IMG/VR virus record: IMGVR_UViG_3300044464_000108
Coordinates: 10,405-74,404 of that record
DNA from: a virus
DNA: 64,000 nt
Reading direction: 5' to 3' (one strand)
Every line of letters begins with the position of its first letter. Position 1 is the stretch's first letter. The position numbers and the translations under genes are program-made. Below, in pieces: positions 5,910 through 55,730 of this stretch. The notes beneath the pieces are model-generated. The model was not told the origin of the DNA, did not search any database, and saw only the letters and a list, made by a program, of their open reading frames with translations.

Positions 5910-6215
5910 GTGAGCCTTTGGAACACGGTTTCAACGTTGACGCGGGGGGTTGCGGCCGAGCTTCTCGGGAGCGCTGGACGAGCTCTCGGGGGGCTTGCCG
6001 CGCGGGTGACTCCTTCGGAAGATCGATCTTCCGAGGACAGGAGAAAACACCTCGAATCTCTTGCACATTTCGGAGTGCGACTCTCCCCGGAAGCGGCAGC
6101 GATGATCGCATCGAAAGCGCCCGATCCTCGGAGCGTTGCTTTCCAAGAAGAACCGCCTTCGTATCTTGAAGGCAGCGTCGAAGCTCGGCGCGCGAGAGCT
6201 CAGGGCGAACGATGA
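5910..6215 (+). CDS. Hypothetical protein containing palindrome copy 1 in frame
   Basis: GTG 6 nt after TAGCCT; stop overlaps the portal start (ATGA). Confidence 0.45.
   Translation: MSLWNTVSTLTRGVAAELLGSAGRALGGLAARVTPSEDRSSEDRRKHLESLAHFGVRLSPEAAAMIASKAPDPRSVAFQEEPPSYLEGSVEARRARAQGER
6015..6034 (+). repeat. 20-bp palindrome copy 1 (forward flank)
   Basis: actcct-TCGGAAGATCGATCTTCCGA-gg. Confidence 0.95.
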
Positions 6216-8428
6216 GCATGATGATGCCGCTCATGTCGGATCCCGTTTTGCGGGGCAAGAACGGCGATACGTACGCCGTCTCGAGCTTCGGCACGAACGC
6301 GACGACGTTTGGACCTGACTTCAAGGTCAACGATCTTTGGAACACCGATCGCCGGAAGGAACTCACTTACCGCGAGACGTTCTTCAAGTGCACACAGCAC
6401 GATCACAAGGCGTTCAACTTCAACGGCTCGACGATCAAACCGGGACCGGTTTGGACACAGCCCTTGCTCTCGAGCGCGCAGATCACCCATTACGTGCCGC
6501 TTGATGCAAGGCGCCCGAGCTCGCCGGTGCGCATCTCGAAGAAGATCGTGAAGGACTTCACCACCCTCGTGTTCGGGCACGGGCGCTTTCCGACGATCAA
6601 AGTCGTGGGGGACCCGGAGACACAGGACTTCTGCACGGCGCTATCCAAGGCGCAGAAGCTCCCGACGATCATGCTTCGTGCGCGGGACATCGGCGGGAGC
6701 GTTGGCACGGTCGGGCTCTCGTGGCGGTTCTACGCCGGCAAGCCGAGGACGCTTCCCCACAACGGCAAGAACCTGTTCGTGCACGAATGGGAGGATCGCG
6801 AAGAGCTCATCCCGTCCCACGTGTCCGAGATCTATCAAGTCAAACGCGAGGAGTTCGACCCGAAGAAGAAGATGGTTGTCGATCGCATCTACTGGCATCG
6901 ACGGGATTGGACGCCGCTCGCCGACGTTCTGTTCGTGGATACGCCGGTCGACGATGACAATCCGGAATGGGTTGTCGATGAAGCGCACATCCACGGTGAC
7001 GGCTTCTGTCACTTCGTGTGGATCCAGAACATCCCCGACGACGAGAACATCGACGGCGAGCCGGATTACGAAGACATCTACGAGAATTGCAACACGCTCG
7101 ACGTCTTGAATTCGGTGCTCGCGAAGGGTGCCACGCTGAATCTCGATCCCACCCTTGTGCTCAAGATGGATCCCGACCTCGTAAAACGCACGGCGGTGCG
7201 GAAGGGATCAGAGAACGCGCTCATCGTCGGGCCCGACGGAAACGCGAGTTACATGGAGCTCGCCGGGACGAGCATCTCGGTTGGGATCGCACTCGTAGAC
7301 AAGGAACGCGCTCAAGCGCTCGAGACCGCGCAATGCGTTGCGCCGGACCCCGACACGATTGCAGCGGCGGGGCTCTCGAGCGTTGCGATTCGCGCGATCT
7401 ATCAAGGCATGCTCGGCGCGGGGGACGTGCGCCGGACGCAATACGGAACGGGGATCGAACGTCTGCTCGAGCAGCAGGTTGCAAGCTCGCGCCGCAAGCT
7501 GAATGTCGACGATGCATCTACGCCGGAAGATGAGTCCGAAGGGTCGGCGGTCGAAGTCGAATACGACGAAGAGACAGGCGAAGAGACTCCCGTCGAGTAC
7601 TACCTGAACCTTCCTCCCCGGGTTGTTGTGTCCGACGTGCGGGACGAGCACGGCGAACCGACGGGCGAGGTAGAGACGAAGTACATCGAACGTCGCCCGG
7701 GGGCCGGCGGACAGATCGAGTGCGATTGGCCGGAGTACTTCCCCGATACCGCGACCGATCAGAAGGATCGAACCTCGACGAATGCGGCAGCGGCGGGAGG
7801 GAAAGCGGTTATGTCGCATCGCTCCGCAGTTGAGATGACGGCGAAGAGCTTCGGGCTCGATCCGACCGAAGAATGGACGGCTGTCTCGAAGCAAGTGCAA
7901 GCCGAGCGGGATGCCGAGTTGCAGATGTTCCCCGGGACCGGCGGCGAAGTCGTCGATCGAAACCAACTCCCGCCGGGAGCTGACGAGCTCGGACCGGCCG
8001 GACATGAGCAACCCGATGGGACAGCCGACCCGCAAAGCGACCCCGTTGTTGTCGTAGGAGGCCGCGGGGGGTTCGCTGAAGCTTCGGCAGCATCGGCAAC
8101 AGCGAAAGTGCAGATGACCCAACTCACGAAGGTGCTCACGATGAACGAGCTTCGTGCAGCGGCCGGCGTGGGCAAGCTCATGATCCCGGGCACGAATACG
8201 CCGGATCCCGATGGGGATCTCGTCATGGCGGAATTCGAGGCGAAGCGATGTGCCAAGGGCAAGGTTGTCGGCGAAGCCGAAGCTGCCGACGAGGTACCCC
8301 CGCCCGGGGATGCTGCAGGGGTTCAAACCGCTCCGGCGCTTCCGAAGGGGGGCAAGGAAGCTCCCGTTTCCCGGAGCGCTCAAAAGGGCGCTCAGAGCCC
8401 CGGAACGAGCTTCCCGCCTGAGGAGTGA
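6212..8428 (+). CDS. Portal protein with acidic insertion and C-terminal extension
   Basis: Large gene heading the head module, immediately before MuF. Portal-like segments (FVWIQNIPDD...GEPDY, SSVAIRAIYQGML) and a SHRSAVE...FGLDP.EEW crown-like tail. Confidence 0.75.
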   Translation: MSMMMPLMSDPVLRGKNGDTYAVSSFGTNATTFGPDFKVNDLWNTDRRKELTYRETFFKCTQHDHKAFNFNGSTIKPGPVWTQPLLSSAQITHYVPLDARRPSSPVRISKKIVKDFTTLVFGHGRFPTIKVVGDPETQDFCTALSKAQKLPTIMLRARDIGGSVGTVGLSWRFYAGKPRTLPHNGKNLFVHEWEDREELIPSHVSEIYQVKREEFDPKKKMVVDRIYWHRRDWTPLADVLFVDTPVDDDNPEWVVDEAHIHGDGFCHFVWIQNIPDDENIDGEPDYEDIYENCNTLDVLNSVLAKGATLNLDPTLVLKMDPDLVKRTAVRKGSENALIVGPDGNASYMELAGTSISVGIALVDKERAQALETAQCVAPDPDTIAAAGLSSVAIRAIYQGMLGAGDVRRTQYGTGIERLLEQQVASSRRKLNVDDASTPEDESEGSAVEVEYDEETGEETPVEYYLNLPPRVVVSDVRDEHGEPTGEVETKYIERRPGAGGQIECDWPEYFPDTATDQKDRTSTNAAAAGGKAVMSHRSAVEMTAKSFGLDPTEEWTAVSKQVQAERDAELQMFPGTGGEVVDRNQLPPGADELGPAGHEQPDGTADPQSDPVVVVGGRGGFAEASAASATAKVQMTQLTKVLTMNELRAAAGVGKLMIPGTNTPDPDGDLVMAEFEAKRCAKGKVVGEAEAADEVPPPGDAAGVQTAPALPKGGKEAPVSRSAQKGAQSPGTSFPPEE

Positions 8429-10923
8429 TGCCGTCTCGGCGAAGTACCCCGGCGGACGCACTTCGAGCGAACCGTGCGCGAGCTGCCGACCTCGCGCAAA
8501 AGGTCGGGGTGCAGAAGGTTCAGTCGATGTTGCAGCGCGCAAACGACGACCTCGAGAAACGGCTGCATGAGGCAACACAACTCCGGGGACGCGGCGAAGA
8601 AACGTTCTCGGTAACGCAGATGCGCGCGACCGTCGCGCAAGTGAAGGACACGCTTCGGTCTCTCACAACGGGGATGAAGGGGCTCATTCTGGATCAGGGG
8701 CAAGCGGCGGTGACGGCCGAAGTCTCGGGAACGCTTCGCTACCTGAACGCGGCCGAGCGGGAGTTTCGCGGCGTCAATCAACGGCTGCAGCTACCCGAGG
8801 CGGGCATTCTCGACACGGCACAGAGCGGCGTCGAGACGAGCTTGCTCCGAAGGATCGCGACGGACCCCTCGCACCCCGGACATGTCGGCGTCTTGAACCG
8901 CTACGGCGCGAACGTGATCGGAAACTTCGAGCAAGAGTTGCAGCTCAAGCTCTTGGCGCGGAAGCCGTGGGACGAAGTGCGCGCGGGGCTCGTCGAGCAA
9001 TCCCCCTTCTTGCAGGGTGCGCCGGCTCATTGGGCCGAGCGCATCGTTCGCACCGAGTCGATGTACGCGAGCAACCGGGCTGGGTGGGAAGCCACGCGCG
9101 CGGCGAACTCCGAGCTCGGGGACATGGTGAAGATCCTGTGCGCGACGTTCGATGATCGAACGGGCTCCGATTCGATCGCGGTGCACGGCCAGATCCGACG
9201 GCCGAATGAAGCCTTCGAAAGTTGGTTTGGCGCCTATCAGCATCCGCCGAATCGCCCGAACGATCGCGAGACCGTCGTTCCGCATCGCATCTCGTGGCCG
9301 ATCCCCGACACGCTCAAGCCTCGGAGCGACGGGGAAGTAGCGGCTCGATGGTTTCAGGAGAAGCGTAAGGGAGCGCCTCCCGGTCGACCCCTCATGTCGA
9401 CGGTGGACGTCTCGCTCTTCGGTCGGCAAGAACCCCCGAAGCTCGAGCGGAAGCAACCGGAGCTACCGCAGCAAGCCGCGCCGCAACCTGAAGTGATTGC
9501 TCCGGCCGAAGGCGCGACTCCGATCGCATCGCCGGAAGTCGTGAGCTCGAGTCCGGCACCCGTTGCACCCGAGCCGAGCGAACCGCAAGCGCCCGAAGCT
9601 CAAGCGGAGCGTCCTCGTGTGCTGCCGCGCTTCCGAAACGAAGCGGCTCGCCGTCGTTATGCCGAAGGGCAGCTCGATCAACTCCCGAGGCTCCCGCCAG
9701 AAGAAGCCGGCGACGACATCATCGTGCGGCATCGGTTCGAGACGAAGAGTGAGGCCTTCGACGAAGCCACGCGCGATCGACTCGAGAGCATCGCGAACGA
9801 TCTCCGTAAGCTCGAGAAAGCCGACGAAGCGCCGCTACCGCGGAACGTGCGCATCGAAGATCTGATCGCGACGCAACCCGATGTCCGATCGGTGCACGTG
9901 CTCGAAGACATCAACCGAACGAATGCACCCGTGCCCGTTGTCGTGCGGCAAGGCGGGAAGCTTTACGTTCAAGAAGGGCTCGAGACGCTCGTCGCTCGTG
10001 ATCTCGCGGGGCATCGCACGGCACCCGTGCACATCATCAATCTCGACACGAAGACACCCTTCAAGGCGCGACCCAAACCGCCGGCTCCGACCCCTCCCCC
10101 TGCCGAAGAGGAGAAGGGGATCCCGGTCAAGAAGGTGCCGGCGAAGGATTATGTCGAGCACCTAAAAAAGTATGTCAAAGGGCGTCCAAAAGCTGTCGAG
10201 GTCTTCGGCGATGTTGCGAAGCATGCACAGCAGATATTCGGCGAACACGCTCCAACTCTCGAGACGCTCGAATCAACTTGGGGGTGCGAACACACGGGGC
10301 ACACCGTGCAGGTACAAAAGGTGTCTTCGAGTCATTGGGGTGCCACGGTTGAGATTCAATACGAAGGCGCGATCATGCGCGAAGGTCGTGAGGTTGGATC
10401 CATAATCCGCACGTTCAAGAAGCACCCAACGGGTCGATTCGAAGTGCATCACGATTACTTCAAGCTCGATGTAGCCGGCGAGCAGGGCAAGGGGCTTGGC
10501 GAGTCGATGATGCGGCAGGCGATTCAGACGTACGACAAGATCGGCGTGCATGACGTCACGGTCGATGCGGCATGGATCGGCCGGTATACGTGGGCGTCGT
10601 TTGGCTACAACTGGGATGCCGAGGAAGCGAGCAACCGCGAGTTCGGTCTTTGGAATTACTTGAAGGACAAGGGGATCGAAAGGGATCGAGCTGCTCGAAT
10701 CGCGAAGCAAGTTGCTCATCGCGCGTGGGATGTCGCGGGACTCGATGTCGATGGCATCCGAGTCGAAGCGATGGTCAATACCGGTGGGAAAACGAAGCTC
10801 ATACCGGACATGACGGTCGGCAAGGCGTTCATGCTCGACAAGGGCATGTGGAGCGGAAAGCTCGTGATCAACAACAAGAACGATCCGAGCTACCTCCGCG
10901 CGAAGTCGCGCCTCAAGCTTTAA
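8425..10923 (+). CDS. MuF/gp7-like head morphogenesis protein with ParB-like and GNAT-like C-terminal domains
   Basis: MuF motifs AERIVRTESMYASN, FDDRT and HPPNRPNDRETV; Pro-rich linker; VRIEDLIATQ...PVVVRQGGKLYVQEG (ParB-like); EQGKGLG...YTWASFGY (GNAT-like). Confidence 0.8.
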   Translation: MMPSRRSTPADALRANRARAADLAQKVGVQKVQSMLQRANDDLEKRLHEATQLRGRGEETFSVTQMRATVAQVKDTLRSLTTGMKGLILDQGQAAVTAEVSGTLRYLNAAEREFRGVNQRLQLPEAGILDTAQSGVETSLLRRIATDPSHPGHVGVLNRYGANVIGNFEQELQLKLLARKPWDEVRAGLVEQSPFLQGAPAHWAERIVRTESMYASNRAGWEATRAANSELGDMVKILCATFDDRTGSDSIAVHGQIRRPNEAFESWFGAYQHPPNRPNDRETVVPHRISWPIPDTLKPRSDGEVAARWFQEKRKGAPPGRPLMSTVDVSLFGRQEPPKLERKQPELPQQAAPQPEVIAPAEGATPIASPEVVSSSPAPVAPEPSEPQAPEAQAERPRVLPRFRNEAARRRYAEGQLDQLPRLPPEEAGDDIIVRHRFETKSEAFDEATRDRLESIANDLRKLEKADEAPLPRNVRIEDLIATQPDVRSVHVLEDINRTNAPVPVVVRQGGKLYVQEGLETLVARDLAGHRTAPVHIINLDTKTPFKARPKPPAPTPPPAEEEKGIPVKKVPAKDYVEHLKKYVKGRPKAVEVFGDVAKHAQQIFGEHAPTLETLESTWGCEHTGHTVQVQKVSSSHWGATVEIQYEGAIMREGREVGSIIRTFKKHPTGRFEVHHDYFKLDVAGEQGKGLGESMMRQAIQTYDKIGVHDVTVDAAWIGRYTWASFGYNWDAEEASNREFGLWNYLKDKGIERDRAARIAKQVAHRAWDVAGLDVDGIRVEAMVNTGGKTKLIPDMTVGKAFMLDKGMWSGKLVINNKNDPSYLRAKSRLKL

Positions 10924-11194
10924 GCCGTATGCCCATCTCAAAGCGGCTCAAGATGTCGACTCGACTCGAGTGCCCTTTCGGGATGCACTCCCCCGCGCGC
11001 TTGATCAGATCTTCGATGGCGTCAGGAGTGAGCTTCTTCTCTCGCCCAAGGCCGACGGCTTCTTCGAAGAGCCAACCCAACGTGTCCCAATCGGGTTGTC
11101 CTTCGGTCGCGTTGGCATAGTCCGCCGAAGCTTCGAGCTCGACGGCTAGATCGTTGTCGCCCTTCCCACGTTCCCGTCTTGCGTTTTTGCTCAT
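10913..11194 (-). CDS. Small acidic helical protein convergent on MuF
   Basis: ATG at 11194 lies 6 nt after a CATCAT -10-like box within GGCGTCATCAT; protein-like sequence DWDTLGWLFEEAVGLGREKKLTPDAIEDLIKRA. Confidence 0.55.
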   Translation of the reverse strand: MSKNARRERGKGDNDLAVELEASADYANATEGQPDWDTLGWLFEEAVGLGREKKLTPDAIEDLIKRAGECIPKGHSSRVDILSRFEMGIRLKA

Positions 11195-11200
11195 GATCCC

Positions 11201-11512
11201 ATGATGACGCCGGGGAGCGCCCCTTACGGAAGCGCGATCTTCCGTGCTACCTCTTCTTGCATGAAACCGTTCAAGATCACGCAACCGGGGGAAGCGGGGA
11301 TCGGCCGAGCAGCCGACGGAAAGTTCACGCGCATCGTTCCGCCGGGCCCTCAGCGAATCATGAAAGAGGCGACCGAGCAGGGGCTTGATGTCGACCGTGT
11401 GATCAGCGAACGGCGAGCGCCCGACCACGCGGTCCCAAAGGGCAACCCGTTAAGCACCGGGCCCGAGGGTGGGCCGGTGAACGACGCGAACAAGAAACCA
11501 TTCAGGATTTAG
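11201..11512 (+). CDS. Hypothetical protein
   Basis: ORF in head module; the true start may be the ATG at 11261. Confidence 0.45.
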   Translation: MMTPGSAPYGSAIFRATSSCMKPFKITQPGEAGIGRAADGKFTRIVPPGPQRIMKEATEQGLDVDRVISERRAPDHAVPKGNPLSTGPEGGPVNDANKKPFRI

Positions 11513-11520: not shown

Positions 11521-11540
11521 TCGGAAGATCGATCTTCCGA
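11521..11540 (+). repeat. 20-bp palindrome copy 2 (forward, intergenic)
   Basis: attcct-TCGGAAGATCGATCTTCCGA-gg. Confidence 0.95.
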
Positions 11541-16710: not shown

Positions 16711-16730
16711 TCGGAAGATCGATCTTCCGA
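16711..16730 (+). repeat. 20-bp palindrome copy 3 (forward, intergenic)
   Basis: agtcct-TCGGAAGATCGATCTTCCGA-gg. Confidence 0.95.
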
Positions 16731-17062: not shown

Positions 17063-17650
17063 GTGCCGCGACCCCGACCTCTTACGCCTTCCCAAGCGAA
17101 GAAGACCCTTGCGGCCAAGTTCGCCGGCAGGAAGGGAAAGGTCGGACTCGCCGATAGATTGCGGCAGCTCAACACGAAGTTTGGGATCAGGTCGAAGCGG
17201 GTCTTTCTTGTTTGGACCCGCTTCGACGGCGCCGAGACGGGGGAGGGACAAGAGACCCGGCTTGCGGAGGTCGAGCTTTTGCCGACCCCGAAGATCGCCG
17301 ATCTCTCGAGCGTGGCGCTCAACCCGTACAGCGTCGGAACGATCCCTATCGGAAGCATCCGTGTCACCGAGGTGAGCGCGGGGCAGTACACGCTCGACGA
17401 CCTCATGGGAGAGATCATCCCGGGGCTCACGACGCGCCTAGCCGAGATGCCCGAGGTGAGCTTTTTTTACGAAATGCGCGAGGACGGGCGCGGCGACGAT
17501 CCTCCTTCGCGTGATCGGTTTCGTTTGGTGTCGCAACCGAACCGCGACGAAGGCGGGGTTCAATGGCAGTTCATTCTCGAGCGCTCGAGTCAGGATCGAT
17601 CGCGCGCGGGCTTGAGCACGTACGGGTCCGGCGGTTGGCGGCAAGTGTGA
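17063..17650 (+). CDS. Head closure/stopper-like protein
   Basis: GTG at 17063 after the upstream TGA; beta-rich; synteny. Confidence 0.55.
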   Translation: MPRPRPLTPSQAKKTLAAKFAGRKGKVGLADRLRQLNTKFGIRSKRVFLVWTRFDGAETGEGQETRLAEVELLPTPKIADLSSVALNPYSVGTIPIGSIRVTEVSAGQYTLDDLMGEIIPGLTTRLAEMPEVSFFYEMREDGRGDDPPSRDRFRLVSQPNRDEGGVQWQFILERSSQDRSRAGLSTYGSGGWRQV

Positions 17651-22788: not shown

Positions 22789-24717
22789 ATGGGCGGCGAA
22801 GCTGTAGAAGTCAAAGCAAAGCTATCTCTCGACGACGTTGCATCAAGCGCTCTTGGCAAGATCAAGAAGGGCTTTGAAGAGACGGGTGATGCTGAGAAGA
22901 AGGCGCAGCAAGGGCTCGCCGACTACGCAAAGAACTTCGTAAGCACCTTTGCGGCGATGAACGCTGCACCGCTCGCGTCGAAGATTGTCGGCTTCGGCAA
23001 GAGTTTCGTCTCGAGCGCGGCAGACGCGCAAGAGATGCGACGCGAGATCACGGGGTTGATCGCGGTGTCGCAAAACATGCCGGTCGCGCAAGTGAGCGCG
23101 AAGGTCGACATGCTCGGCGAGAAGTTTGCCGAGACGGGGATCAAGGTCGGCGTCGGGGCGGGAGAGATTCGCGAGGCGTTCAACGTCATGCTCGAGATGG
23201 GTCGCAACATGGGCGACTCGACGCGTACAGCGCAGCAGCTCGCGCAAGTGACGGGCGTCATCGGGGGCAACACCGCTCAGTACGCGCAAGAGTGGGCGTT
23301 CATGAGCGAAGGCGTTCTACGAACGCGCGGGCATCTGTTCCAGCTCTTGAATCAAACGGGCATCTTCGGAAAGGACATCAAGAAGGCTTCGGCATCGTGG
23401 GCACTTCTCACGGATGCGCAGCGCACCGATCGCTTGAACAAGGGGCTCGAGCAGGTCGGCAACAAGCTCTCGAAGATCCCGCCGGGCTTCAACCAAACCG
23501 TCGCGGGTCTCGAAGGCATGTGGAAGTCCCTCAAGAAGGACGTCGGCGGTCCGATCCTCGATGCGTTGATCCCGATCTTCAAAGACCTGCAACAGCGCTT
23601 TGTAGCGATCCGGCCCGAGCTCAAAGCGTTCGCGAAGAGCATGGGCACCGATGTCGCTTCGGTTGTGAAGGAAGCCGCAAAGCTTGCTTCATCCGCCTTC
23701 GAATACTTGAAGACGCATGCCGACGAGATCAAGGAAGCGATCTCGGATGCCTACAAGGGGCTCCGTACAACGATCGAATTCATCCTCGCGCACAAGGAAG
23801 AGATCGCGCTCATGTTCGGCGGTCTAAAGGCCTTCCAACTCGGGAGCGCAGTCGGCAAGGCGGACGTTGGGGGCAAAGCCATCGGCGCGGCGCAGCAGCT
23901 CGGGGGAATGATGGGCTTCACGGGCAGCGTGAGCTCTGCCGCAGCAGGGCTTGGCTTGATGGCGCTCGCTCTCGCGGCGGTGACTGCAGCGCTTTGGCAA
24001 TACGAGAAGCTGCAGAAGGACAAGGAACAGATCAAAGACGTTCACGGGGGCGCCAAGGGGCATCTCGAAAAGCTTGCGGCGTCGGGTGATTCCGAAAACG
24101 TGCAGCGCATGCTCGCGTCGATTCGAGAGACGGAAGCGGCTCGAAGCGGATTCTCGAAGATGCTCGACAAGATCGGGATCTTCAACGGGTCGCTTGCAAT
24201 GACGGGCGCGGAATTCGACAAGTGGTCTCAGCAACTCGAGTCCACCGCGGGCATGGTGCAGGTGCAGACCGCGCAGCTCGAGCAGCAAGCCGCCGAAGCG
24301 AACGCGGCCGGAGCGTTCGAAGAGATCGTTCTAACCTACAACCAAGCTAGCCAACTCCAGAACTCAGCCGCGCAAGCGTATGCCGCTCAGATGCTCGTGA
24401 CCTCGGGTCTCACGGTGGACGCGATGAAGGGTGCCGGCATGGAGATCGCCGGGGACATGGACGAGTTTGCGGCGACGTTCGCGAAGACGGGCGATCAATT
24501 CAAAGAGGCGCTCGCAAAGTTTCTCGGAGGGGACGCGGGCAAAGCGAGCAAGACGCCGGCCCCTCAGGTCAACATGTCGGGCGGGCAGGTTTTCAAGATC
24601 AATCAAGACTTTCGGGATCAGGATCCCGATCGCGTGGCGGTCGTTCTACGTCGCGAGCTCGGGGCTTCGGCCATCCGTCGCGTGCAAGCGCATACAAGCG
24701 GTGCCTTCGGTCAGTGA
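22789..24717 (+). CDS. Tape measure protein
   Basis: Long Ala/Gly-rich helical protein after the chaperones; VEVKAKLSLDD N-terminus. Confidence 0.85.
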   Translation: MGGEAVEVKAKLSLDDVASSALGKIKKGFEETGDAEKKAQQGLADYAKNFVSTFAAMNAAPLASKIVGFGKSFVSSAADAQEMRREITGLIAVSQNMPVAQVSAKVDMLGEKFAETGIKVGVGAGEIREAFNVMLEMGRNMGDSTRTAQQLAQVTGVIGGNTAQYAQEWAFMSEGVLRTRGHLFQLLNQTGIFGKDIKKASASWALLTDAQRTDRLNKGLEQVGNKLSKIPPGFNQTVAGLEGMWKSLKKDVGGPILDALIPIFKDLQQRFVAIRPELKAFAKSMGTDVASVVKEAAKLASSAFEYLKTHADEIKEAISDAYKGLRTTIEFILAHKEEIALMFGGLKAFQLGSAVGKADVGGKAIGAAQQLGGMMGFTGSVSSAAAGLGLMALALAAVTAALWQYEKLQKDKEQIKDVHGGAKGHLEKLAASGDSENVQRMLASIRETEAARSGFSKMLDKIGIFNGSLAMTGAEFDKWSQQLESTAGMVQVQTAQLEQQAAEANAAGAFEEIVLTYNQASQLQNSAAQAYAAQMLVTSGLTVDAMKGAGMEIAGDMDEFAATFAKTGDQFKEALAKFLGGDAGKASKTPAPQVNMSGGQVFKINQDFRDQDPDRVAVVLRRELGASAIRRVQAHTSGAFGQ

Positions 24718-25556: not shown

Positions 25557-25562
25557 ATCCCT

Positions 25563-25582
25563 TCGGAAGATCGATCTTCCGA
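25563..25582 (+). repeat. 20-bp palindrome copy 4 (forward, intergenic)
   Basis: atccct-TCGGAAGATCGATCTTCCGA-gc. Confidence 0.95.
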
Positions 25583-28273: not shown

Positions 28274-28328
28274 ATGATGACGCGAGGTCTGCGCTCGGAA
28301 GATCGATCTTCCGAAGGGGTGCTAGCCT
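28274..28328. promoter_or_regulatory. Divergent promoter pair flanking palindrome copy 5
   Basis: Minus-strand CATCAT (28274-28279) is 6 nt before the MTase ATG; plus-strand TGcTAGCCT (28323-28328) is 7 nt before the baseplate GTG. Confidence 0.6.
28295..28314 (-). repeat. 20-bp palindrome copy 5 (reverse, between divergent genes)
   Basis: gc-TCGGAAGATCGATCTTCCGA-aggggt. Confidence 0.95.
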
Positions 28329-31944: not shown

Positions 31945-32277
31945 ATGGCAAACGCAAACCCAAGAGCACTCGACATCACGCTCGACGACATGTCGCCCGA
32001 TTGCAGCGCTCCCCGTTACAAGGCGGCTGCCGATGCGTTGATCGAAGAGTTGAAGGTCATCCAACAATCGCGGGGCACATCCGAGCTTGCGCAAGCGTTT
32101 CACAGCAAGGCGATCGAGTATGCGAACGACTTCGCAAAGTGGACGCCGGATGCACTCCCCGACCTTGAGAGCCGGAGCCTGACCCAAGCGTCTTTCATCG
32201 CGTTCCGGGACAAGGTGCAGAAGTTTCTCGCGACGTATCGGAGTGGGCTTCGGAAGATCGATCTTCCGAAGGAGTGA
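31945..32277 (+). CDS. Hypothetical protein ending in palindrome copy 6
   Basis: Helical protein-like ORF; its last codons (RKIDLPKE) come from the palindrome. Confidence 0.5.
   Translation: MANANPRALDITLDDMSPDCSAPRYKAAADALIEELKVIQQSRGTSELAQAFHSKAIEYANDFAKWTPDALPDLESRSLTQASFIAFRDKVQKFLATYRSGLRKIDLPKE
32250..32269 (-). repeat. 20-bp palindrome copy 6 (reverse)
   Basis: ct-TCGGAAGATCGATCTTCCGA-aggagt. Confidence 0.95.
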
Positions 32278-37040: not shown

Positions 37041-37442
37041 ATGGATGACTACGAGGACTTGCCGAACACGAACGGGAGCAAGCTCGATCGAATCCTGTCA
37101 AAGCTCGATGACGCGCGCGAAGGTCGTGGCGCGATGAACGAGAAGCTCGACGATATCAGCCGCGACCTCGCGAGCCATCGAGCCGAGTTCGCCAAGCACG
37201 ACGGTGAGGATCGCGAATTCCGCAAGGCGACGGAACGCCGCGTTGACAAGCTCGAGCGTAAGAGCGAGACGGACATGCGCGAGCGCCTCAATCAAGAACG
37301 CGAAGCGGCCAAGGGTGTAACGGCCGACAAGAAGGATTCGTCGAAGCATTGGACGCGAACGATCGCAGCGGTTGCGATTGGGATCGTGGCTTCGGTGATC
37401 GCGGCGGTCATCACGGCAATCGTGACAGGACACGTGAAGTAG
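37041..37442 (+). CDS. Coiled-coil protein with C-terminal transmembrane helix (lysis-associated)
   Basis: C-terminal IAAVAIGIVASVIAAVITAIV; upstream of the endolysin. Confidence 0.6.
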   Translation: MDDYEDLPNTNGSKLDRILSKLDDAREGRGAMNEKLDDISRDLASHRAEFAKHDGEDREFRKATERRVDKLERKSETDMRERLNQEREAAKGVTADKKDSSKHWTRTIAAVAIGIVASVIAAVITAIVTGHVK

Positions 37443-37456
37443 TAAGCTCGCCTCCT

Positions 37457-37759
37457 ATGGTGGAGCTCCTACTCAAGAATCCCGCGCTCGTGACCTTTCT
37501 TTGGGCGACGGTGCTTTGGCCCGTCGGTTCGGGAATCGTCAACTTGATCTTCGATCGGTTCATCCCGAATACGGACGCCGGTTGGGACCTTTGGTTCGCG
37601 TCCAACCCCGGGCGTGCAGCGCTCGCGAAGTTGCTCCGGCAATGGGGGGTAAACCTCCCCGGCGGCTTCCGAACCATCCGCGCCTTCTTCTCGGGCCCTG
37701 CCCCTAAATTCCCGGCAAAAACGGAAGAGCCGGTTAAAGACCCTCCCAAGCCCGTTTAA
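37457..37759 (+). CDS. Putative holin
   Basis: N-terminal hydrophobic segment LVTFLWATVLWPVGSGIVNLIF; in the lysis cluster. Confidence 0.5.
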   Translation: MVELLLKNPALVTFLWATVLWPVGSGIVNLIFDRFIPNTDAGWDLWFASNPGRAALAKLLRQWGVNLPGGFRTIRAFFSGPAPKFPAKTEEPVKDPPKPV

Positions 37760-37914
37760 GACGTCTTTGGGTTTCCAACACCCTCCCGGGTGATCTGACC
37801 CGTGCGGACTTCGTAAAGGTCAACGTCGACAGACTGAGATGGGGTTTCACTTCCAGGATGCGGACAGGATCCCACACCCGAGTCATTCCAGAAGAGTCAA
37901 AGGTCTAGCTCATC

Positions 37915-37934
37915 TCGGAAGATCGATCTTCCGA
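37915..37934 (-). repeat. 20-bp palindrome copy 7 (reverse, upstream of endolysin)
   Basis: tc-TCGGAAGATCGATCTTCCGA-agggat. Confidence 0.95.
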
Positions 37935-37972
37935 AGGGATTCCAATCCGAGCGACCTGTTACCGTTTGGGAC

Positions 37973-39304
37973 ATGCGTGCTTCCGATTACATCGAGCAGC
38001 TTCCCGAACAAGCCGGACCCGAGCGGGAACGGAAGATCCTCGAATGGGCAATCAAGGGGCAGCTCCGCCCGATCGAATGGGCCCAAGTGCGGTCAGGGCG
38101 CGCGGTGTTTCAAGTGTCCGCCGACGGGCTCAAGGTCGGCGATGAGAACGATTCCGTTCGATTGAACGCCTGCCACGCGACGGCGCAGCAGCTCGCCGAC
38201 ATCCTTGGTGTGAGGCTTCCGACGACGAAGATTGAAGACCTCGCTTGGGCTCAAGCGCCGCTCAGGATCAAGCCGCAGATCCAAACGCCGGACGCGGCGA
38301 TGAGCAACACGAGTCGCATGGTGCAGCACAGCCGGGCGATCGATGCGATTCAGGCGTCGATCCAATCAATGCCCGAAAGCCAGAAGCAGTTTCTGCGAAC
38401 CGCCGGCAAGGTTTGGGCGCTGACGAATCGACTCGAAGGCAACCCCGGGCGAGCCGCAAACTACGGTTGGCACGATCGCGGTGCTCCGAACGGCAAGTGT
38501 TGGCAACCGCTCGGACTCGCGCACAACCTCCGGCACGTCGACTATTCGCAAAACCTCTTTTTCGTACACCCGCTCGTCGACATCGAAGGGGTGAACTACG
38601 GCTACGAAGAAGTCCTAACGACTCCCGCGTTCGCTCAATACGCGAGCGATGAAGGCGTGCTTCGGATCACGCGACATCCCGGCGTGAGTCCGGACCATGG
38701 CGACATCCTGCATACGCTTCTCCCGCCGCCCTTGCTTGGGTGCGAGGGGCCCGCCGAAGACCCGGGGGTTATCCCGTTCGTGCAGGCGTTTCACTACCGC
38801 AAGGCGGATCGCAAGGACGTGCGCGTGCTCGTCGTGCACGACACCGAGACCCCGCAAACTGTCACAAGCGCCGAAGTCATTGCCGCGACGTTCGCAAGCA
38901 AAGCTTCGCCCATGGCTTCCCCGACGTACGCCGTCGATGTGGATTCGTGCGTGCAGATGGTGCGCGACGAAGACGTGGCTTTCCACGTCGGAGCTCCCGC
39001 AAACGATTGGAGCGTCGGGATCGAGCATGCCGGCTATGCGCGATACTCCGCGGAGGATTGGGGGAGCATCTACTCGAGAGCGATGCTCCGTCGGTCCGCT
39101 GGACTTGCGGCTCGCATCTGCCGCAAGTGGGGGATCCCGCCGGTGTTCCTAACGGCCGCCCAACTCCGAGATCCTTCGGCGCGCGGCATCACGACGCACA
39201 AGCAGATCAGCGATGCGTTTCACGGGTCGAACCATTGGGATCCCGGTCCGGGCTTCCCGATCCTTTGGTACGTGAACGCGGTCGCTTGCGCTCTCGCGGC
39301 GTAG
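37973..39304 (+). CDS. Endolysin: unknown N-terminal domain plus N-acetylmuramoyl-L-alanine amidase (Amidase_2)
   Basis: VLVVHDTE, AFHVG..N..SVGIEHAG, GITTHKQIS and HWDPGPGFP supply the Zn ligands and catalytic Glu. Confidence 0.85.
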   Translation: MRASDYIEQLPEQAGPERERKILEWAIKGQLRPIEWAQVRSGRAVFQVSADGLKVGDENDSVRLNACHATAQQLADILGVRLPTTKIEDLAWAQAPLRIKPQIQTPDAAMSNTSRMVQHSRAIDAIQASIQSMPESQKQFLRTAGKVWALTNRLEGNPGRAANYGWHDRGAPNGKCWQPLGLAHNLRHVDYSQNLFFVHPLVDIEGVNYGYEEVLTTPAFAQYASDEGVLRITRHPGVSPDHGDILHTLLPPPLLGCEGPAEDPGVIPFVQAFHYRKADRKDVRVLVVHDTETPQTVTSAEVIAATFASKASPMASPTYAVDVDSCVQMVRDEDVAFHVGAPANDWSVGIEHAGYARYSAEDWGSIYSRAMLRRSAGLAARICRKWGIPPVFLTAAQLRDPSARGITTHKQISDAFHGSNHWDPGPGFPILWYVNAVACALAA

Positions 39305-39656
39305 CAAAAAGATCCATCGACGTGTTTGCGGGCGCTTTGCGCCTGCAGTGACACCGAAGGTGTCACCACAAACAAACTATTTTCATCTCCAGCGATCCGT
39401 CCGCGTCATGAGATCAGAAAAGAAAGGGAATGGGGGGTAAGGGGGGATCTGAATTTGATCCAAGGATCAACGTATCTGCACAAAGTAGATCGCGCGCGCG
39501 AGACGGACGCCGAGTCCGCGCCGGACATGCAGCCGACGGACTGGGAACGGGTTGAGCGATTCGTCCAGCTCGAGCCGCGGGAAGAACCCGAACAGAAGAT
39601 CTAGATCCTCCCGATGCATCGCTCGCGTCATGATCCGCCCGAAGGAGGATCGACCA

Positions 39657-40087
39657 TGGCAGGCGTAGCGAAACGGTTTCGAATCGAGGAGTGCGGAACG
39701 GGGCGGGTGATCTGGCAAAACCTACCCGCGTTGAACGGGGGGATCACGGGCTCGGAGGTCAAGGTCATCGGGAAGAAACCCGAGACGCTCGAGATCGGCG
39801 AGACGACGGTGCTCGAGTACAAGTTGATCGGTCGGTGCGCACAATACGTGCTTCGACGAACCGACGATGAGGTCTCGAACAAGAAAGAGCCGGCTCAAGC
39901 TCGCGACCCGGGGGACCCGAACGCTGACATCCCGGTGAAGCCGCAAGCCGAGGTGCTCCCCTTCGAGCCTCCGACGAAAGCCAAAAGGCAGCGGACTCGG
40001 GTGAACGCGATCAACCGGGCGGCGAGTCGTATGCCGGCGGATGGCAACGTGCTCGCCGGTCGAGATCCCGAGGGCGAAGTCTCGTGA
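39657..40087 (+). CDS. Hypothetical protein
   Basis: SD AGGAGG before ATG 39657; upstream CGCGTCATGAT box. Confidence 0.55.
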
Positions 40088-40605
40088 GAGGCAGGACCTT
40101 CAAAGACTTCATTGGAACCGCTGACGATCAACGCGCGAAAGATCTTCAGATGCTCAAGATGGCAGCCGCGGGGCTGCCCGATGAGAAACCCGGGCGACAT
40201 GGGTGCCGAGGGGATGGGCCGTTGGTTCCGAACGCCGCGAAGGAAGCGTTCGCCGACATGAAAGAACGGCTCGAGAGCATGCCGGGGCGTGTGCTCACCG
40301 AGAAACAACGGGGGTGGCTCAAGCGTGAGCTCGACAGCGAGAGCATTGAATACGAATCGCCTGCCGAGCGGAACGCGTCAGTCCCTCGCGGGAAGGAAGT
40401 AGCACCCGCTTACGACACGAACATCCCGAAAAGGCCGCCGGCACGGGGTTCCAATGTGCCCGTTCTAAGTGGCCGGAATGATGCCGAAAAAAACACCGCT
40501 CGGAAGATCGATCTTCCGAAGGGTGGGACCATGCTTGCGGGTGACGTCTCGCTCGAATCGCTCTTTGATTCCTACGCCGACGATCCGGACGATCTGCCGT
40601 TTTGA
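40084..40605 (+). CDS. Hypothetical protein containing palindrome copy 8 in frame
   Basis: GTGA overlap; acidic C-terminus DSYADDPDDLPF. Confidence 0.55.
   Translation: MRGRTFKDFIGTADDQRAKDLQMLKMAAAGLPDEKPGRHGCRGDGPLVPNAAKEAFADMKERLESMPGRVLTEKQRGWLKRELDSESIEYESPAERNASVPRGKEVAPAYDTNIPKRPPARGSNVPVLSGRNDAEKNTARKIDLPKGGTMLAGDVSLESLFDSYADDPDDLPF
40500..40519 (-). repeat. 20-bp palindrome copy 8 (reverse)
   Basis: gc-TCGGAAGATCGATCTTCCGA-agggtg. Confidence 0.95.
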
Positions 40606-40615
40606 AGGGGATGCG

Positions 40616-41257
40616 ATGCAAGACTACGACGAGATCATCAACCGACCTCCCATGCCGATTCCGTTAACGCCCTTGCAGCCCATCGGCTTCGAATCGGCAG
40701 ACGGGGATTGCTTACGACTGCAGCAGTACATCGACACCCATCCTTCGGTAGAGGGAGCTTTTCAACAGCGACAACTTCTCGCACGAGCTGGATGTTTCGG
40801 CAGGGTGGAGCGCTCGCAGCATCGGGGGAGCATCGAATATGAACTCGTCGTGTCGCTTCTTCAGGCTGTGAGGATTCGGGGGTTTCCGATCCCGATTGAG
40901 TTTCTCGTCGTCGACTTGGCCAAGCCTGGGTCGAAAGAAAACTTCGGCTGTATTGAGGTCGAGGTTGTGATCCATGTCCTTCATCGCGACACGGGGGAGC
41001 CGACCCGTGTCACTTCACGGAATTCGATCTCGGTCGATCTAATCCACAGAAGTACAGCCCAAGAGATCTTGGATCGGATGATCCTCTTCACGGTTCGCGA
41101 GCTCGTGATTCACGAGCTTGAAGAGTGCACGTACTTCGATGGGCACCGATTGAGCGAACCTCACACCGACTCGGTAATGCCGACAGAGAACCAACTTGAC
41201 CCGGTTGCGGCGTGGGAGCGCCGTCGGGCTCAAACCAACATCAAGGGAGGCCCGTAG
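40616..41257 (+). CDS. Hypothetical protein
   Basis: RELVIHELEECTYFDGHRLSEPH pattern; packed between neighbours. Confidence 0.55.
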   Translation: MQDYDEIINRPPMPIPLTPLQPIGFESADGDCLRLQQYIDTHPSVEGAFQQRQLLARAGCFGRVERSQHRGSIEYELVVSLLQAVRIRGFPIPIEFLVVDLAKPGSKENFGCIEVEVVIHVLHRDTGEPTRVTSRNSISVDLIHRSTAQEILDRMILFTVRELVIHELEECTYFDGHRLSEPHTDSVMPTENQLDPVAAWERRRAQTNIKGGP

Positions 41258-41259
41258 CC

Positions 41260-42969
41260 ATGCAAGAGACCTATATCGATGCTGCCGTTTGCAGCATCCA
41301 AGAATCCCCGACGAACCCGCGCAAACATTACGACCCGGCGAAGATGACCGAGCTCATCGCGAGCGTGAAAGAGCACGGCATCATCACACCCGTTGTCGCG
41401 CGCTACGTGCGCGGAAGCACAGATATGCTCGAGCTCGTCTTCGGGCATCGACGACTTCGTGCCGCTCGCGCAGCGAAGCTCGATCACATCCCGACCATCA
41501 TCCGGGAGATGACCGACAAGGCCGTTCTCGAAGCGCAGCTCGTCGAGAACAGCCAACGCGAGGACGTGCACCCGCTCGAAGAGGCGGAAGGGTATCGGCA
41601 GCTCAAAGAGGTGCACGACTACACGATCGAAGATATCGCGCTCAAGGTCGGAAAAGACGCGAGCTACGTCTATTCGCGAATCAAATTGCTCGGTCTCTCC
41701 GACCTCGGCAAGCAAGCTTTCTTTGACGGGAAGATCAATGCATCGGTCGCGCTTCTCGTCGCGCGGATGCCGAGCTTCGAGCTTCAAGACAAGGCGCTGA
41801 AAGACATCGTGGGCGAAGGCGACGACGAGCCGATGAACGTGCAAGAGGCGCGGCGTTTTATTACCGCGCACTTCATGCTTCGGCTTGTGGACGCTCCCTT
41901 TCGAAAGGACGATCCAACCCTTGTCGAAGCGGCCGGCGCTTGCACGAAGTGTCCGAAGCGCACGGGCAATCAGAAGGAACTGTTTGCTGACGTCGAAGCG
42001 AAGGACACGTGCACCGACCCGAAGTGCTTCGAGTTGAAGCGGGGCGCGCATTGGGAGCGTGAGAAGGCGAAGGCAAAGCAGGAAGGCCGAAAGGTGCTTT
42101 CACCCGTCGAGACGAAACGACTCTTTCCCTACAACAACGGCTTGATGCCTCATAACTCCCCGTATGTGGCGCTCGACGAGCGCCCGATCGGCGAAGAGGC
42201 TGACAAGCCGTGGAAAGACATTCTCGGTAAGGACACCCCAAAGAGCGTGCTCGTGCTCGACCCGCTCGGCAACCCGCGCAACCTTGTTCTCAAGGCTGAC
42301 GTGCTCGCAACCGAGAAGGTGCCCGAGCACATCCTTGACAGCGGAGCTCTGTCGACGGTCGTGCCGACGACACGACAGCAACGCGCGAAGGAGCGCGAAC
42401 GGCTCGAGCAGGTGCAGACGATGAACGATGAGTCCATCGCCGATCTCATGAGTGCGATCGGCGGTCGGGGCATTCAGCTCGAGGGCTTCAAGATGCTCTT
42501 GAGTTCAATCCTTGAGAGCTCGCATTGGGCGAGCGTGCTTCGCGACATCACGCGGCGTCGAGGGCTCACGACGTCGAAGGATCTCATGCCTCGGGATGCC
42601 GTGCGCGAGTACATCGAGCGGATGACCACGATCGAGGAATGCTTTGGGTTGCTTGTCGAAGCGACGGTCTTGCATGACTTGACCGGGGGTGTACCGCTGC
42701 AGAGCGTCGAGCTCATCGAAGGGTTTCGAAAGGTTTACAAGAACGAGGCTTTCGGTGTCGTGGGAACCCCGCCGAAGGCATCGAAGAAGAAGTCCCCCAA
42801 AGAGCTTTTTGCATGCGGCACGGTGCTTCCCAAGGCCGTCAAGACGGTCAAGATTCTTCTGTCCAAAGTCGCCGCTAAGCCGCCCAAGGCGAAAGCCAAA
42901 GCAAAGAAGAAGGCGAAGCCTGCATCGCCCAAGGGCAAGGCCTCAAAAGGCAAACCGAAGAAGCCTTAG
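41260..42969 (+). CDS. parB: ParB/Spo0J-family protein with Cys cluster and Lys-rich tail
   Basis: SPTNPRKHYD, LVFGHRRLRAA (GxxRxxA), ENSQREDVHPLEEAEGY; HTH TIEDIALKVGKDASYVYSRIKL; CTKCPKRT...CTDPKC. Confidence 0.9.
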   Translation: MQETYIDAAVCSIQESPTNPRKHYDPAKMTELIASVKEHGIITPVVARYVRGSTDMLELVFGHRRLRAARAAKLDHIPTIIREMTDKAVLEAQLVENSQREDVHPLEEAEGYRQLKEVHDYTIEDIALKVGKDASYVYSRIKLLGLSDLGKQAFFDGKINASVALLVARMPSFELQDKALKDIVGEGDDEPMNVQEARRFITAHFMLRLVDAPFRKDDPTLVEAAGACTKCPKRTGNQKELFADVEAKDTCTDPKCFELKRGAHWEREKAKAKQEGRKVLSPVETKRLFPYNNGLMPHNSPYVALDERPIGEEADKPWKDILGKDTPKSVLVLDPLGNPRNLVLKADVLATEKVPEHILDSGALSTVVPTTRQQRAKERERLEQVQTMNDESIADLMSAIGGRGIQLEGFKMLLSSILESSHWASVLRDITRRRGLTTSKDLMPRDAVREYIERMTTIEECFGLLVEATVLHDLTGGVPLQSVELIEGFRKVYKNEAFGVVGTPPKASKKKSPKELFACGTVLPKAVKTVKILLSKVAAKPPKAKAKAKKKAKPASPKGKASKGKPKKP

Positions 42970-47478: not shown

Positions 47479-47822
47479 GCACACCGATCGACCGATTGCA
47501 GAACTCGCTCGAAGAGATCCGAGAAGAGATCCTCGACTATGACCCGGACGCGAAGAAGGGGCGCGATGCGTGGGACGAACGCCGAATCGACCTCGACGTA
47601 CGTCTCCGGCTTGCGCTCGAGTATGTCGAGCGGATCCGGGAGGTTTACGAGCGCCCTTCGGAAGATCGATCTTCCGAGAGCCCGCAAGAATTCGAAGAAG
47701 GCACGGCGGAACGTTGGCAAAAGGGACCGGGCGAGCATCTCGCCAAGTATCTCGAAGAGAGCCGGCGGCAGGCGTTCATTGACGAGATGAACGGGAAGTA
47801 CAGGAATCCCCGTGCGGGTTGA
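47475..47822 (+). CDS. Hypothetical protein containing palindrome copy 9 in frame
   Basis: ATGA overlap with DnaB; also overlaps the primase start. Confidence 0.55.
   Translation: MSTPIDRLQNSLEEIREEILDYDPDAKKGRDAWDERRIDLDVRLRLALEYVERIREVYERPSEDRSSESPQEFEEGTAERWQKGPGEHLAKYLEESRRQAFIDEMNGKYRNPRAG
47658..47677 (+). repeat. 20-bp palindrome copy 9 (forward)
   Basis: cgccct-TCGGAAGATCGATCTTCCGA-ga. Confidence 0.95.
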
Positions 47823-49158: not shown

Positions 49159-49183
49159 TTCGGTTCGCGTCATGATGTGGGTG

Positions 49184-49510
49184 ATGAGTACTTCACGCGC
49201 AAAAACCGAAGAGAAGGGTGGCTTCCGATTCACCGTGATCGGGGCTCTCATCCCTCATGACCCGAAGGAAGCCGCAAAACAGCTCCAAGCCGTCTACGAC
49301 GCCGAGCTTGCGAAGAAGGATGTTCACTTCAACGGGGTGGGCGTCCGGGTCGCAAAGGTGCTCGGCATTGGCTATGCGACCCTGCAGCGCTGGCTTCTAC
49401 GCCTCGAAGAAGCCAAGTGCCCGGTCAATACGGGGCGCGATGCCTGTCAAGCCAAGCACGCGGCAGCGAAGCCGGTGAAGCGCTCTACGAAGCGTTCCCG
49501 AGCAGCTTGA
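49184..49510 (+). CDS. HTH DNA-binding protein
   Basis: VRVAKVLGIGYATLQRWL HTH; ATG 7 nt after CATGAT. Confidence 0.6.
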   Translation: MSTSRAKTEEKGGFRFTVIGALIPHDPKEAAKQLQAVYDAELAKKDVHFNGVGVRVAKVLGIGYATLQRWLLRLEEAKCPVNTGRDACQAKHAAAKPVKRSTKRSRAA

Positions 49511-55058: not shown

Positions 55059-55115
55059 CTTGGGCGAACCCTGACGGGCTCGCGTCATGATGGGGTCAAA
55101 GGGAGGCTACGAGCG

Positions 55116-55730
55116 ATGCGACGGAGCGAAGCGGGTGGACGTAAAAAGCCGGACTTCTTAGGGAATCTCCGAATCCCTTCGGAAGATCGATCTTCCGAGG
55201 ATTCGACCGACCGGCCGGCTAGTTCGATTGAGGGGGCGGTGTTACGCGGCAAGCTCCGGGGGCTCGATCAGGTCGTCGAGCGAATCTTTGAGATCGGGGT
55301 CGACGAAAGCAAGTTTCTCGAGCTCAAGCGATGTTTGAAGTTTGGCAAGCCGGCATCACAGATGTCTTACGGCGAGCTCGTCGACGAGCTCGACTTAGGC
55401 GAGGATCGGGCGCGAGAAGCGCACGAACTGTTCATCAACGCGGAGTATGCGCTTCGGGCGTACGAAGCGGACTCAATGCCCGGGGACTCCGACATGCGAG
55501 AGCAGGCTCTCGCGGCGCTGACGAGCGAGAAGGAGTCCGGCGCACGGAAAAAGCAGATAGCGGAAGCGGACGTCGAAGCGAAGGTTTCGAGTCTCTTCCC
55601 CGACGAGTTCCGTTCCCGCGTGCACGAGCGCGCGAAGTTGAAGGGTGCCGTCAAACACTTGGAGCATCTTGCGGACCTTTGGAAACAACGGTGTCGCGAG
55701 CTCCAAACAATGGTCTCCGGTGCTCGTTAA
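55116..55730 (+). CDS. Coiled-coil hypothetical protein (possibly UvsY-like recombination mediator), containing palindrome copy 10
   Basis: SD GGGAGG; helical; lies between polymerase and SSB-like gene. Confidence 0.5.
   Translation: MRRSEAGGRKKPDFLGNLRIPSEDRSSEDSTDRPASSIEGAVLRGKLRGLDQVVERIFEIGVDESKFLELKRCLKFGKPASQMSYGELVDELDLGEDRAREAHELFINAEYALRAYEADSMPGDSDMREQALAALTSEKESGARKKQIAEADVEAKVSSLFPDEFRSRVHERAKLKGAVKHLEHLADLWKQRCRELQTMVSGAR
55179..55198 (+). repeat. 20-bp palindrome copy 10 (forward)
   Basis: atccct-TCGGAAGATCGATCTTCCGA-gg. Confidence 0.95.

Follow-up and report, generated by a model that had tools for sequence, protein, structure and literature searches.

Why should a short DNA word be repeated without change along a whole phage genome, and what might read it? 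The question is raised by a stretch of 64,000 nucleotides, hereafter the window, which corresponds to bases 10405-74404 of the 92,033-bp IMG/VR virus record IMGVR_UViG_3300044464_000108 (the phage is here labelled G000) and in which a perfect 20-bp palindrome recurs at ten places. Comparison with relatives led to the identification of at least 36 lineages of an uncultured family of ~90-kb phages, each having a perfect palindrome of its own, 12-40 bp in length and present in 7-26 copies per genome. With moderate confidence, we propose that these sites constitute a private operator network, which would be read on duplex DNA by a phage-encoded protein and would mark the boundaries of transcription units or cistrons. 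That a protein binds the sites, that the phage encodes this protein and that transcription is affected is what we infer from the observations reported below. Positions are those of the window unless preceded by "genome" or by the label of a contig.

The palindrome in G000 and in its relatives

Exact matches to the 20-mer start at 6015, 11521, 16711, 25563, 28295, 32250, 37915, 40500, 47658 and 55179, with gaps of 2.6-8.9 kb, as had been described in a first-pass annotation made from the sequence alone; no site with one to three mismatches was found in the window, and 100 shuffles gave no match. The remaining details of that description were also recovered. One side of every window copy reads (C/T)CCT, whereas the opposite flanking base is G in nine of the ten copies and the equivalent of A in copy 6; the resulting polarity follows the order F,F,F,F,R,R,R,R,F,F (F, as in copy 1, having this foot on the left), and genes lie nearly all on the + strand (116 of 119 according to our own gene calls, by which 92% of the genome is coding). 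When the full record was scanned with mismatches allowed, 14 exact and three degenerate copies were counted, the near copies outside the window being at genome 24 (two mismatches) and genome 2978 (one mismatch, in the centre).

Four copies, all outside the window (genome 24, 2978, 6521 and 91986), were found to be fully symmetric, in the form CCCT-core-AGGG. This makes the full unit a palindrome of 28 bp, with the one-sided foot as its outer part. In 12 copies the outer four bases are retained on one side only, and the tally for the genome amounts to 8 F, 4 R and 4 symmetric copies. The polarity noticed at first is real, but the pairing of a full half-site with a truncated one describes it better; its orientation tends to follow the downstream content and not the gene strand. 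The odds of the block-wise order, computed by hand and post hoc, are 12/495 (0.024).

Neither an assembly or adapter artefact nor a word over-represented throughout the host, two origins that could have emptied the observation of interest, was borne out. Independent Logan contigs cross five of the copies without any difference, at ~19x, thus indicating that the copies are not produced by assembly. The word is a repeat in none of 185,579 species genomes; it occurs once each in three unrelated species genomes among them and once each in four metagenome contigs unrelated to the phage, which is about what chance gives, and no other IMG/VR contig has the exact word. A central tetranucleotide serving restriction or methylation and avoided elsewhere in the genome was also considered and rejected, TCGA and GATC being present at the expected frequency.

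By comparison with known phages, G000 is novel, with few PHROG or Pfam matches. Megablast with 20 kb of G000 did not retrieve any match among INPHARED phages, and its portal protein shares only 27-31% identity with those of cultured phages, namely Ralstonia and Komagataeibacter phages. The same portal has 436 metagenomic homologues, many of them on contigs of ~90 kb. The only run holding G000 DNA is a sediment metagenome, and no RNA run has the phage. Among the relatives fetched (80 IMG/VR loci and three further contigs), about half of the loci have a perfect palindrome as their most frequently repeated 11-mer, constant within a genome and differing between genomes. Copies number 18 in G001 and in G014, 17 in G003, 24 in G004, 20 in G005, 26 in G009 and in G013, and 12 in G017, while G012 has seven perfect copies and about 14 in all. 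A variant of the scheme is found in G010, whose eight copies are asymmetric, with one perfect and invariant half, GCGATTCCAAAC, and one recurrent variant half, GTATGGAACCGC (L149-L153; e.g., genome 21732, 38916 and 72065). No dispersed palindrome was found in G015 and G016. A CRISPR-like array is present in G015 (35993-36900, i.e., L135:15993-16900, the record behind L070), consisting of ~13 direct repeats of ~36 nt with a period of 62-80 bp and unique spacers.

The lineage words share an architecture. Their central dinucleotide is CG in 34 of the 36 lineage consensus palindromes (p 6e-13 against composition), and the central tetranucleotide is self-complementary in all 36 (TCGA in 13, CCGG in 11, ACGT in 5, GCGC in 5 and others in 2); the 5' half is purine-rich in 27 lineages, versus 8. 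Since the arms of many lineages are visibly related (types CGGAA.., GGAAAC.. and CCGCAA..), the lineage words look like diverged descendants of one kind of site.

Whether the palindrome had been inserted into, or conserved at, homologous places was examined in pairs of relatives. All five alignable sites of L037 and L035, which are 75-80% identical, are positional orthologues despite diverged flanks; L037 has mostly the symmetric form, and the seven sites of L035 share one asymmetric position, in either orientation. A C-rich degenerate stretch at L037:8630-8680, of the same length as the normal palindrome that L035 has there, is either a decayed site or a hairpin sequencing error. L009 and L010 keep their three shared sites in aligned blocks of 84-97% identity, and L010 has an extra cassette (palindrome, promoter and a 118-aa open reading frame, ORF) at a junction where L009 has the promoter only. 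Sites are thus kept at orthologous positions and are positionally stable between phages of 75-97% nucleotide identity, apart from this cassette. Among the five complete genomes at a greater distance, positions are shared only modestly more than random placement gives (p 0.01-0.08); the recurrent ones are upstream of the helicase, of the portal and of the post-polymerase gene. Finally, two orthologous junctions of L044 and L047 (79% identical) bear two different palindromes, and different palindromes at orthologous junctions of related phages mean that the sites changed in concert.

Placement of the sites

Spacing and covariation statistics were computed on ten genomes with 185 sites. Intergenic sites are 128 of the 185, although 88-94% of each genome is coding, and spacing is more even than that of random points in nine of the ten genomes (coefficient of variation 0.34-0.60 versus ~0.92), with a mean gap of 4-6 kb. 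For G000, 13 of the 17 copies are intergenic against ~1.4 expected, the typical copy lying 6-15 nt past a stop codon, with the next start 13-40 nt further on.

Signals resembling promoters are recurrently found next to the sites. At no fewer than six places in G001, 6-8 nt separate the end of the site from a downstream -35-like hexamer, after which come a TAnnnT box and a leaderless ATG; in G003 the site and a conserved 10-nt extension stand 29-32 nt before start codons, with a 10:1 orientation; in G013 -10-like boxes (GGCGGCATAAGG or TAGGCT) recur 7-30 nt after the site. Those G000 copies whose full flank (AGGG) faces downstream have TAnnnT/GCGTCATCAT boxes within 8-25 nt at 28295, 32250, 37915, genome 2978 and genome 6521, whereas those with the truncated flank facing downstream have a Shine-Dalgarno sequence and ATG directly after, or lie inside genes. 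This split (boxes at 5/8 versus 0/8) gave a Fisher p of about 0.03, hand-computed and post hoc. As a tentative explanation of the block-wise polarity, the R block coincides with tail and lysis genes having leaderless-type starts. The palindrome was also tried as the -35 element of an extracytoplasmic function (ECF)-type promoter with a fixed -10 and rejected, no conserved -10 being present at 16-17 nt in G000 or G004.

Taking the window copies in turn, copy 1 (6015..6034; F, TCCT foot left and GG right) is intergenic, upstream of the portal gene at 6212. Copies 2 to 4, all F, closely follow stop codons: copy 2 (11521..11540) by 9 nt, with GAGGAG and then an ATG at 11559 directly after; copy 3 (16711..16730) by 6 nt, with GGGAGG and an ATG at 16744; and copy 4 (25563..25582) by 7 nt. 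A 32-bp perfect palindrome (25618-25649; 14-bp stem, CCGG centre) is located 36 nt after copy 4, with an A-run ahead and a T-run on the opposite strand; Logan k=31 contigs break there, and it looks like a canonical bidirectional terminator, separate from the dispersed palindrome. The R block begins with copy 5 (28295..28314), in a divergent promoter region, with a TAGCCT box 8 nt downstream and a leaderless GTG at 28336 and, on the other strand, a TCGCGTCATCATC box 9 nt away, ahead of the minus-strand gene 27590-28267. Copy 6 (32250..32269) covers the last codons (RKIDLPKE) of a 110-aa ORF and is followed by a TAGGCT box 21 nt downstream, before the ATG at 32306; copy 7 (37915..37934) is intergenic, with a TACCGT box 25 nt downstream, ahead of the endolysin ATG at 37973; copy 8 (40500..40519) is within a 173-aa ORF or at its end, with parB ~760 bp downstream, and is followed by AGGGTGGG and an ATG. 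The last two copies, again F, read in frame as PSEDRSSE: copy 9 (47658..47677) within an ORF of 115 aa located between those for DnaB and primase, and copy 10 (55179..55198) in the variable N-terminal linker of a conserved 204-aa protein encoded after the DNA polymerase gene. Copy 10 is truly intragenic, because the N-terminus (MRR.SEA) and the C-terminal domain of this protein are conserved in relatives, whose own palindrome sits just upstream of the gene. Besides the two PSEDRSSE copies, two copies read RKIDLPK at or near ORF ends.

A degenerate copy with four mismatches (11226..11245, genome 21630) occupies the divergent stretch that separates a minus-strand gene of 93 aa (10913-11194) from the gene at 11261. 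Its outermost pair is changed on both sides (T..A to A..T), still matching, and its centre is also changed; read on the minus strand, it is followed 14 nt downstream by a GGCGTCATCAT box and a leaderless ATG. Minus-strand genes are rare, and many of them are preceded by a site in the divergent region upstream.

Another recurring motif, TCGCGTCAT(G/C)AT, precedes start codons by 5-25 nt and is probably a promoter element of the -10 type; upstream of it, at 9-15 nt, lie three of the palindrome copies. It occurs on the + strand at genome 1524, 50027, 53378, 59569, 65484, 69427, 77054, 84909, 87726 and 88972 and on the minus strand at genome 37982 and 38677, window examples being 28273-28285, 49165-49177 and 55080-55092.

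Outside the window, an unannotated leaderless ORF at genome 6575 (L116:6563-6700), 35 nt past the symmetric copy at genome 6521, is preceded by CATAAT and 6 nt before its ATG, and encodes a lipoprotein-like signal peptide with a lipobox-like LVIGC. The two contig ends (genome 1-72 and 91963-92033; L116:1-72 and L117:17664-17734) share an imperfect repeat of ~72 bp, with six differences, that contains the palindrome and could result either from a circularly permuted genome with variation between strains or from two intergenic regions that are paralogous; the record is rated 100% complete by CheckV and is called linear by IMG/VR. Three copies of a ~25-nt motif, CTTGTATCTAGCTCATCATGAGCTA, stand before small genes near the contig ends (L116:147-174; L117:15644-15671 and 17417-17444) and may be early promoters. 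A minus-strand tRNA-Met (CAT) at genome 75410-75483 (L117:1111-1184) was the sole tRNA in a scan covering the 28 kb outside the window.

What might read the sites

In the model that we favour, the palindrome would consist of two inverted half-sites of 10-14 bp abutting at the central CpG, and a symmetric (dimeric), sequence-specific phage protein would read the sites on double-stranded DNA. With ~16 sites at cistron or transcription-unit boundaries, typically a few bases past a stop codon and either level with the -35 position or ribosome-binding site of the next gene or just ahead of it, one protein could control or insulate transcription along a nearly one-directional genome. As every lineage has a private word, protein and sites must co-evolve. 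It is only from symmetry, missing covariation and concerted evolution that we infer binding by a dimeric phage protein. Among the options put forward in the first-pass annotation, an operator or stoperator-like network gives the best fit. Its broader claim of a genome-wide protein-binding or structural signal is supported by the comparative evidence as far as protein binding is concerned, whereas a pure cruciform is without support, as is a packaging signal.

The sites could alternatively act as a hairpin of RNA or single-stranded DNA at cistron boundaries, by terminating transcription without a U-tract, by stabilising the 3' end, or as a target at which a hairpin-specific nuclease carries out processing. 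The site folds into an 8-bp stem with a 4-nt loop (-15 to -21 kcal/mol), copies lie 5-15 nt past stop codons, and the two-sided change in the degenerate copy at 11226 retains the outer pair. Positive flank covariation was moreover detected in G009 (Z +2.9) and G017 (Z +2.1), and two G009 copies are followed by T-runs, so that the site may double as a hairpin in some lineages. On the contrary, the self-complementarity of the central four bases, found in all lineages, is not needed by a loop, and symmetry through the centre thus favours reading on the duplex. No net covariation emerged over the 185 sites, where variable mirrored positions form 391 Watson-Crick pairs versus 405 expected by column shuffling (Z -1.1), a count in five genomes giving 237 versus 260; in G004 the four flank Y/R combinations occur as independence predicts, and in G005 three half-site variants combine freely (A/A, B/B, C/B, C/A and B/A). 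A terminator scan of 24000-42000 did not reveal any + strand copy with a T tail, copy 8 alone being flagged, on the minus strand; T-runs were not found in the flanks of any G000 copy, and Rfam gave no match at gathering score in the window. Since the loop positions are self-complementary, covariation is missing overall and copies occur in divergent promoter regions, pairing does not appear to be what is selected. Within-genome identity and concerted replacement would in any case still require a sequence-specific reader. A hairpin is thus regarded as an unlikely explanation of the sites.

Quite unlikely, in our judgement, is a selfish mobile palindrome, comparable to a repetitive extragenic palindrome (REP) or a MITE (a miniature transposable element with inverted repeats), copying itself into permissive places, although the first-pass annotation had listed a REP-like mobile hairpin among its options. 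Identical copies, some of them intragenic and in frame, would be expected of such an element, which could also account for the same asymmetric variant in every copy of some lineages and for the L010 cassette missing from L009. The profiles of Phage_integrase, resolvase (PF00239) and Y1_Tnp (PF01797) did not, however, find any match in the five genomes searched, whereas control genomes gave matches for Y1_Tnp. Moreover, sites are evenly spaced and stable in position between related phages, the architecture with its CpG centre and purine-rich 5' half is family-wide, orthologous sites are replaced in concert and not gained or lost, and host copies are lacking.

G000 has a lytic-type set of genes for replication and nucleotide metabolism. 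PHROG and Pfam annotations include, for structure and lysis, a major head protein, a terminase and an endolysin; for replication, a PolA-type polymerase, DnaB, a DnaG-type primase and a helicase with an HNH domain; for recombination, RecA-like, Mre11-like and Rad50-like proteins; and further a sigma-70 region 2 protein, ThyX, dCMP deaminase, thymidylate kinase, an N6/N4 methylase and ParB. Mre11-like, Rad50-like and possibly gp32-like genes are kept in all five compared genomes and a RecA-like gene in four of them. A more speculative scheme, that we hold for very unlikely, is a private "self" code in which a phage enzyme, and not simply a regulator, would nick or cut the lineage word at its invariant central CpG. 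Evenly spaced entry points would thereby arise for the conserved Mre11-Rad50-RecA-gp32 machinery of recombination-dependent replication or for clamp-driven late transcription, and the word would diversify to keep co-infecting relatives from exploiting one another's genomes.

A partition centromere had also been proposed. Under this proposal, the phage ParB of G000 would use the dispersed palindromes as parS/OB-type sites, which would serve global repression of the KorB kind or function as a centromere. The protein (41260-42969, + strand; 569 aa) has both a ParB_N domain (5e-23) and a helix-turn-helix (HTH) domain, HTH_ParB (1e-12), its gene lies 760 bp downstream of copy 8, and G002, the other relative with an HTH ParB, also has dispersed palindromes. 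However, HTH_ParB is above cut-off in only two of the 19 near-complete genomes (G000 and G002), while palindromes are present in most relatives. ParB was therefore rejected as a family-wide reader, partition does not offer a general explanation, and even for G000 alone we consider the proposal highly improbable. No integrase was found, the gene set is of lytic type, and no ParA was seen among the ~100 proteins scanned with Pfam or PHROGs, no search aimed at ParA having been made. Least probable of all is that the sites are structural or enzymatic places on the DNA (nick, cut or cruciform), serving as spaced entry points for the Mre11-Rad50-RecA machinery or for clamp loading, since the even spacing of ~4-6 kb, the conserved recombination genes and a symmetry about an invariant CpG that resembles a cleavage centre are offset by the lack of any site-specific nuclease linked to the sites, by HNH and PD-(D/E)xK genes not conserved family-wide and by an intergenic, promoter-proximal placement that such a role does not require.

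With regard to the protein that would read the operator network, the sole candidate, and a weak one, is a small Fis-type HTH protein (49172-49510, + strand; 112 aa; alignment A2, with HTH_8 in four of four members). In three of the five complete genomes under comparison, the primase gene is followed two genes on by a member of this family, which has matches in 11 of 14 complete relatives, often as two or three tandem paralogues (three in G010). The 204-aa post-polymerase protein was rejected as a reader, being a helical protein with the site within its variable N-terminus, and probably belongs to a recombination module. The gene order at 55116-58479 is polymerase, helical 204-aa protein, a possibly gp32-like zinc-ribbon protein and a RecA-like protein; the 204-aa protein is weakly similar to part of the phage ParB (pairwise E 3e-5) and may be a recombination mediator. 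Atlas look-ups of the 424-aa and 474-aa zinc-ribbon proteins gave weak leads only, the latter being the possibly gp32-like one. No recognisable DNA-binding domain was found in a ParB_N-only family of 228 aa, nor any DNA-binding signal in the other conserved unknown proteins examined. At 62430-63799 a gene for a PD-(D/E)xK endonuclease (PDDEXK_15) overlaps the start of one for an N6/N4 DNA methylase, with the 228-aa protein next, a group that could be restriction-modification-like or a recombination module.

Several points weigh against an operator network, besides the flank covariation and the T-runs described above. No reader protein was found among the candidates examined; the Fis-type family does not track the presence of palindromes, in that the palindrome-free G015 has it and some genomes rich in palindromes lack it, and G014 and G022, with one core in common, have different recognition helices. 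Perfect identity across 20-40 bp in every copy exceeds the needs of most operators, and a single asymmetric position recurring from copy to copy (7/7 in L035, 4/4 in L039; 12/16 in G000) is not expected from a simple homodimer. Nor is the site at a constant distance from the promoter, its centre ranging from about -31 to -55, and some copies are located within genes or border on a Shine-Dalgarno sequence where no promoter is present.

Comparison with known systems

Dispersed dyad repeats are known from a few phages, such as the Cluster O mycobacteriophages, where they are unexplained, and here their comparative study becomes possible in a globally sampled family, which offers dozens of natural specificity swaps, an almost invariant CpG centre, concerted replacement and two relatives that lost the sites. 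If the proposed reading is true, one protein would punctuate transcription genome-wide by means of a private code, with a bearing on genome control during co-infection, and the family could supply orthogonal protein-operator pairs.

Some known elements resemble the sites in part. Some arms, with AAACC beside the centre, resemble hix/gix-like crossover sites of serine invertases, the difference being that PF00239 is absent from the five genomes. Intrinsic terminators differ in having a T/U run, which no + strand G000 copy in 24000-42000 is followed by. REP elements are imperfect hairpins with hundreds of copies in the host, mobilised by a Y1 transposase (RAYT). Like them, the sites are short, near-identical, species-specific palindromes after stop codons with a one-sided foot, but the G000 palindrome is perfect through its centre and lacks host copies, and neither Y1_Tnp nor net compensatory change was detected.

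Regulatory systems come closer. The late-gene activators Mor/C of Mu and Ogr of P2 and the phiC31 repressor with its CIR sites employ dyad sites at or upstream of the -35 region of phage promoters without a -35 consensus; these number 4-18 and serve one temporal class, whereas the 16-26 sites of the phage family extend over structural, lysis and replication modules. In the KorB-OB system of the IncP plasmid RK2, about a dozen identical perfect palindromes, near to and far from promoters, are bound by one dimeric HTH protein. The dispersion of identical perfect palindromes is common to both systems and G000 also encodes an HTH ParB, but KorB is a ParB homologue and an HTH ParB is confined to two of the 19 near-complete genomes of the family. 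Cluster A stoperators, bound by L5 gp71, are tens of near-identical sites in short intergenic gaps over the whole genome, and their consensus varies between sub-lineages along with the repressor. Near-identity, short intergenic gaps and a genome-wide distribution are shared with G000; stoperators are, however, asymmetric 13-14-mers oriented with transcription in temperate phages, while the G000 core is a perfect palindrome of mixed orientation (8 F, 4 R and 4 symmetric) and integrase was not found in the five genomes. Among these five, ParB occurs in G000 only, and no immunity repressor was recognised.

The closest precedent is represented by the dyad repeats of Cluster O mycobacteriophages (Corndog and relatives), in which more than 30 invariant 17-bp copies, many intergenic and some in genes, are absent from the hosts (PMC4351075). 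These phages are without integrase and parAB; a dimeric DNA-binding protein was predicted and the repeats were compared with Cluster A stoperators, their function being left unexplained (PMC4351075). The likeness concerns the many near-invariant dyad copies found genome-wide (14 exact and three near in G000, 7-26 in nine relatives) and a word that is likewise not a repeat in host or other genomes. On the other hand, the Cluster O repeat has a 3-bp variable spacer and one word common to five phages, whereas the palindromes described here are spacerless, CpG-centred, 12-40 bp long and lineage-specific, evenly spaced and hugging stop codons and promoters, with an outer flank that is often one-sided.

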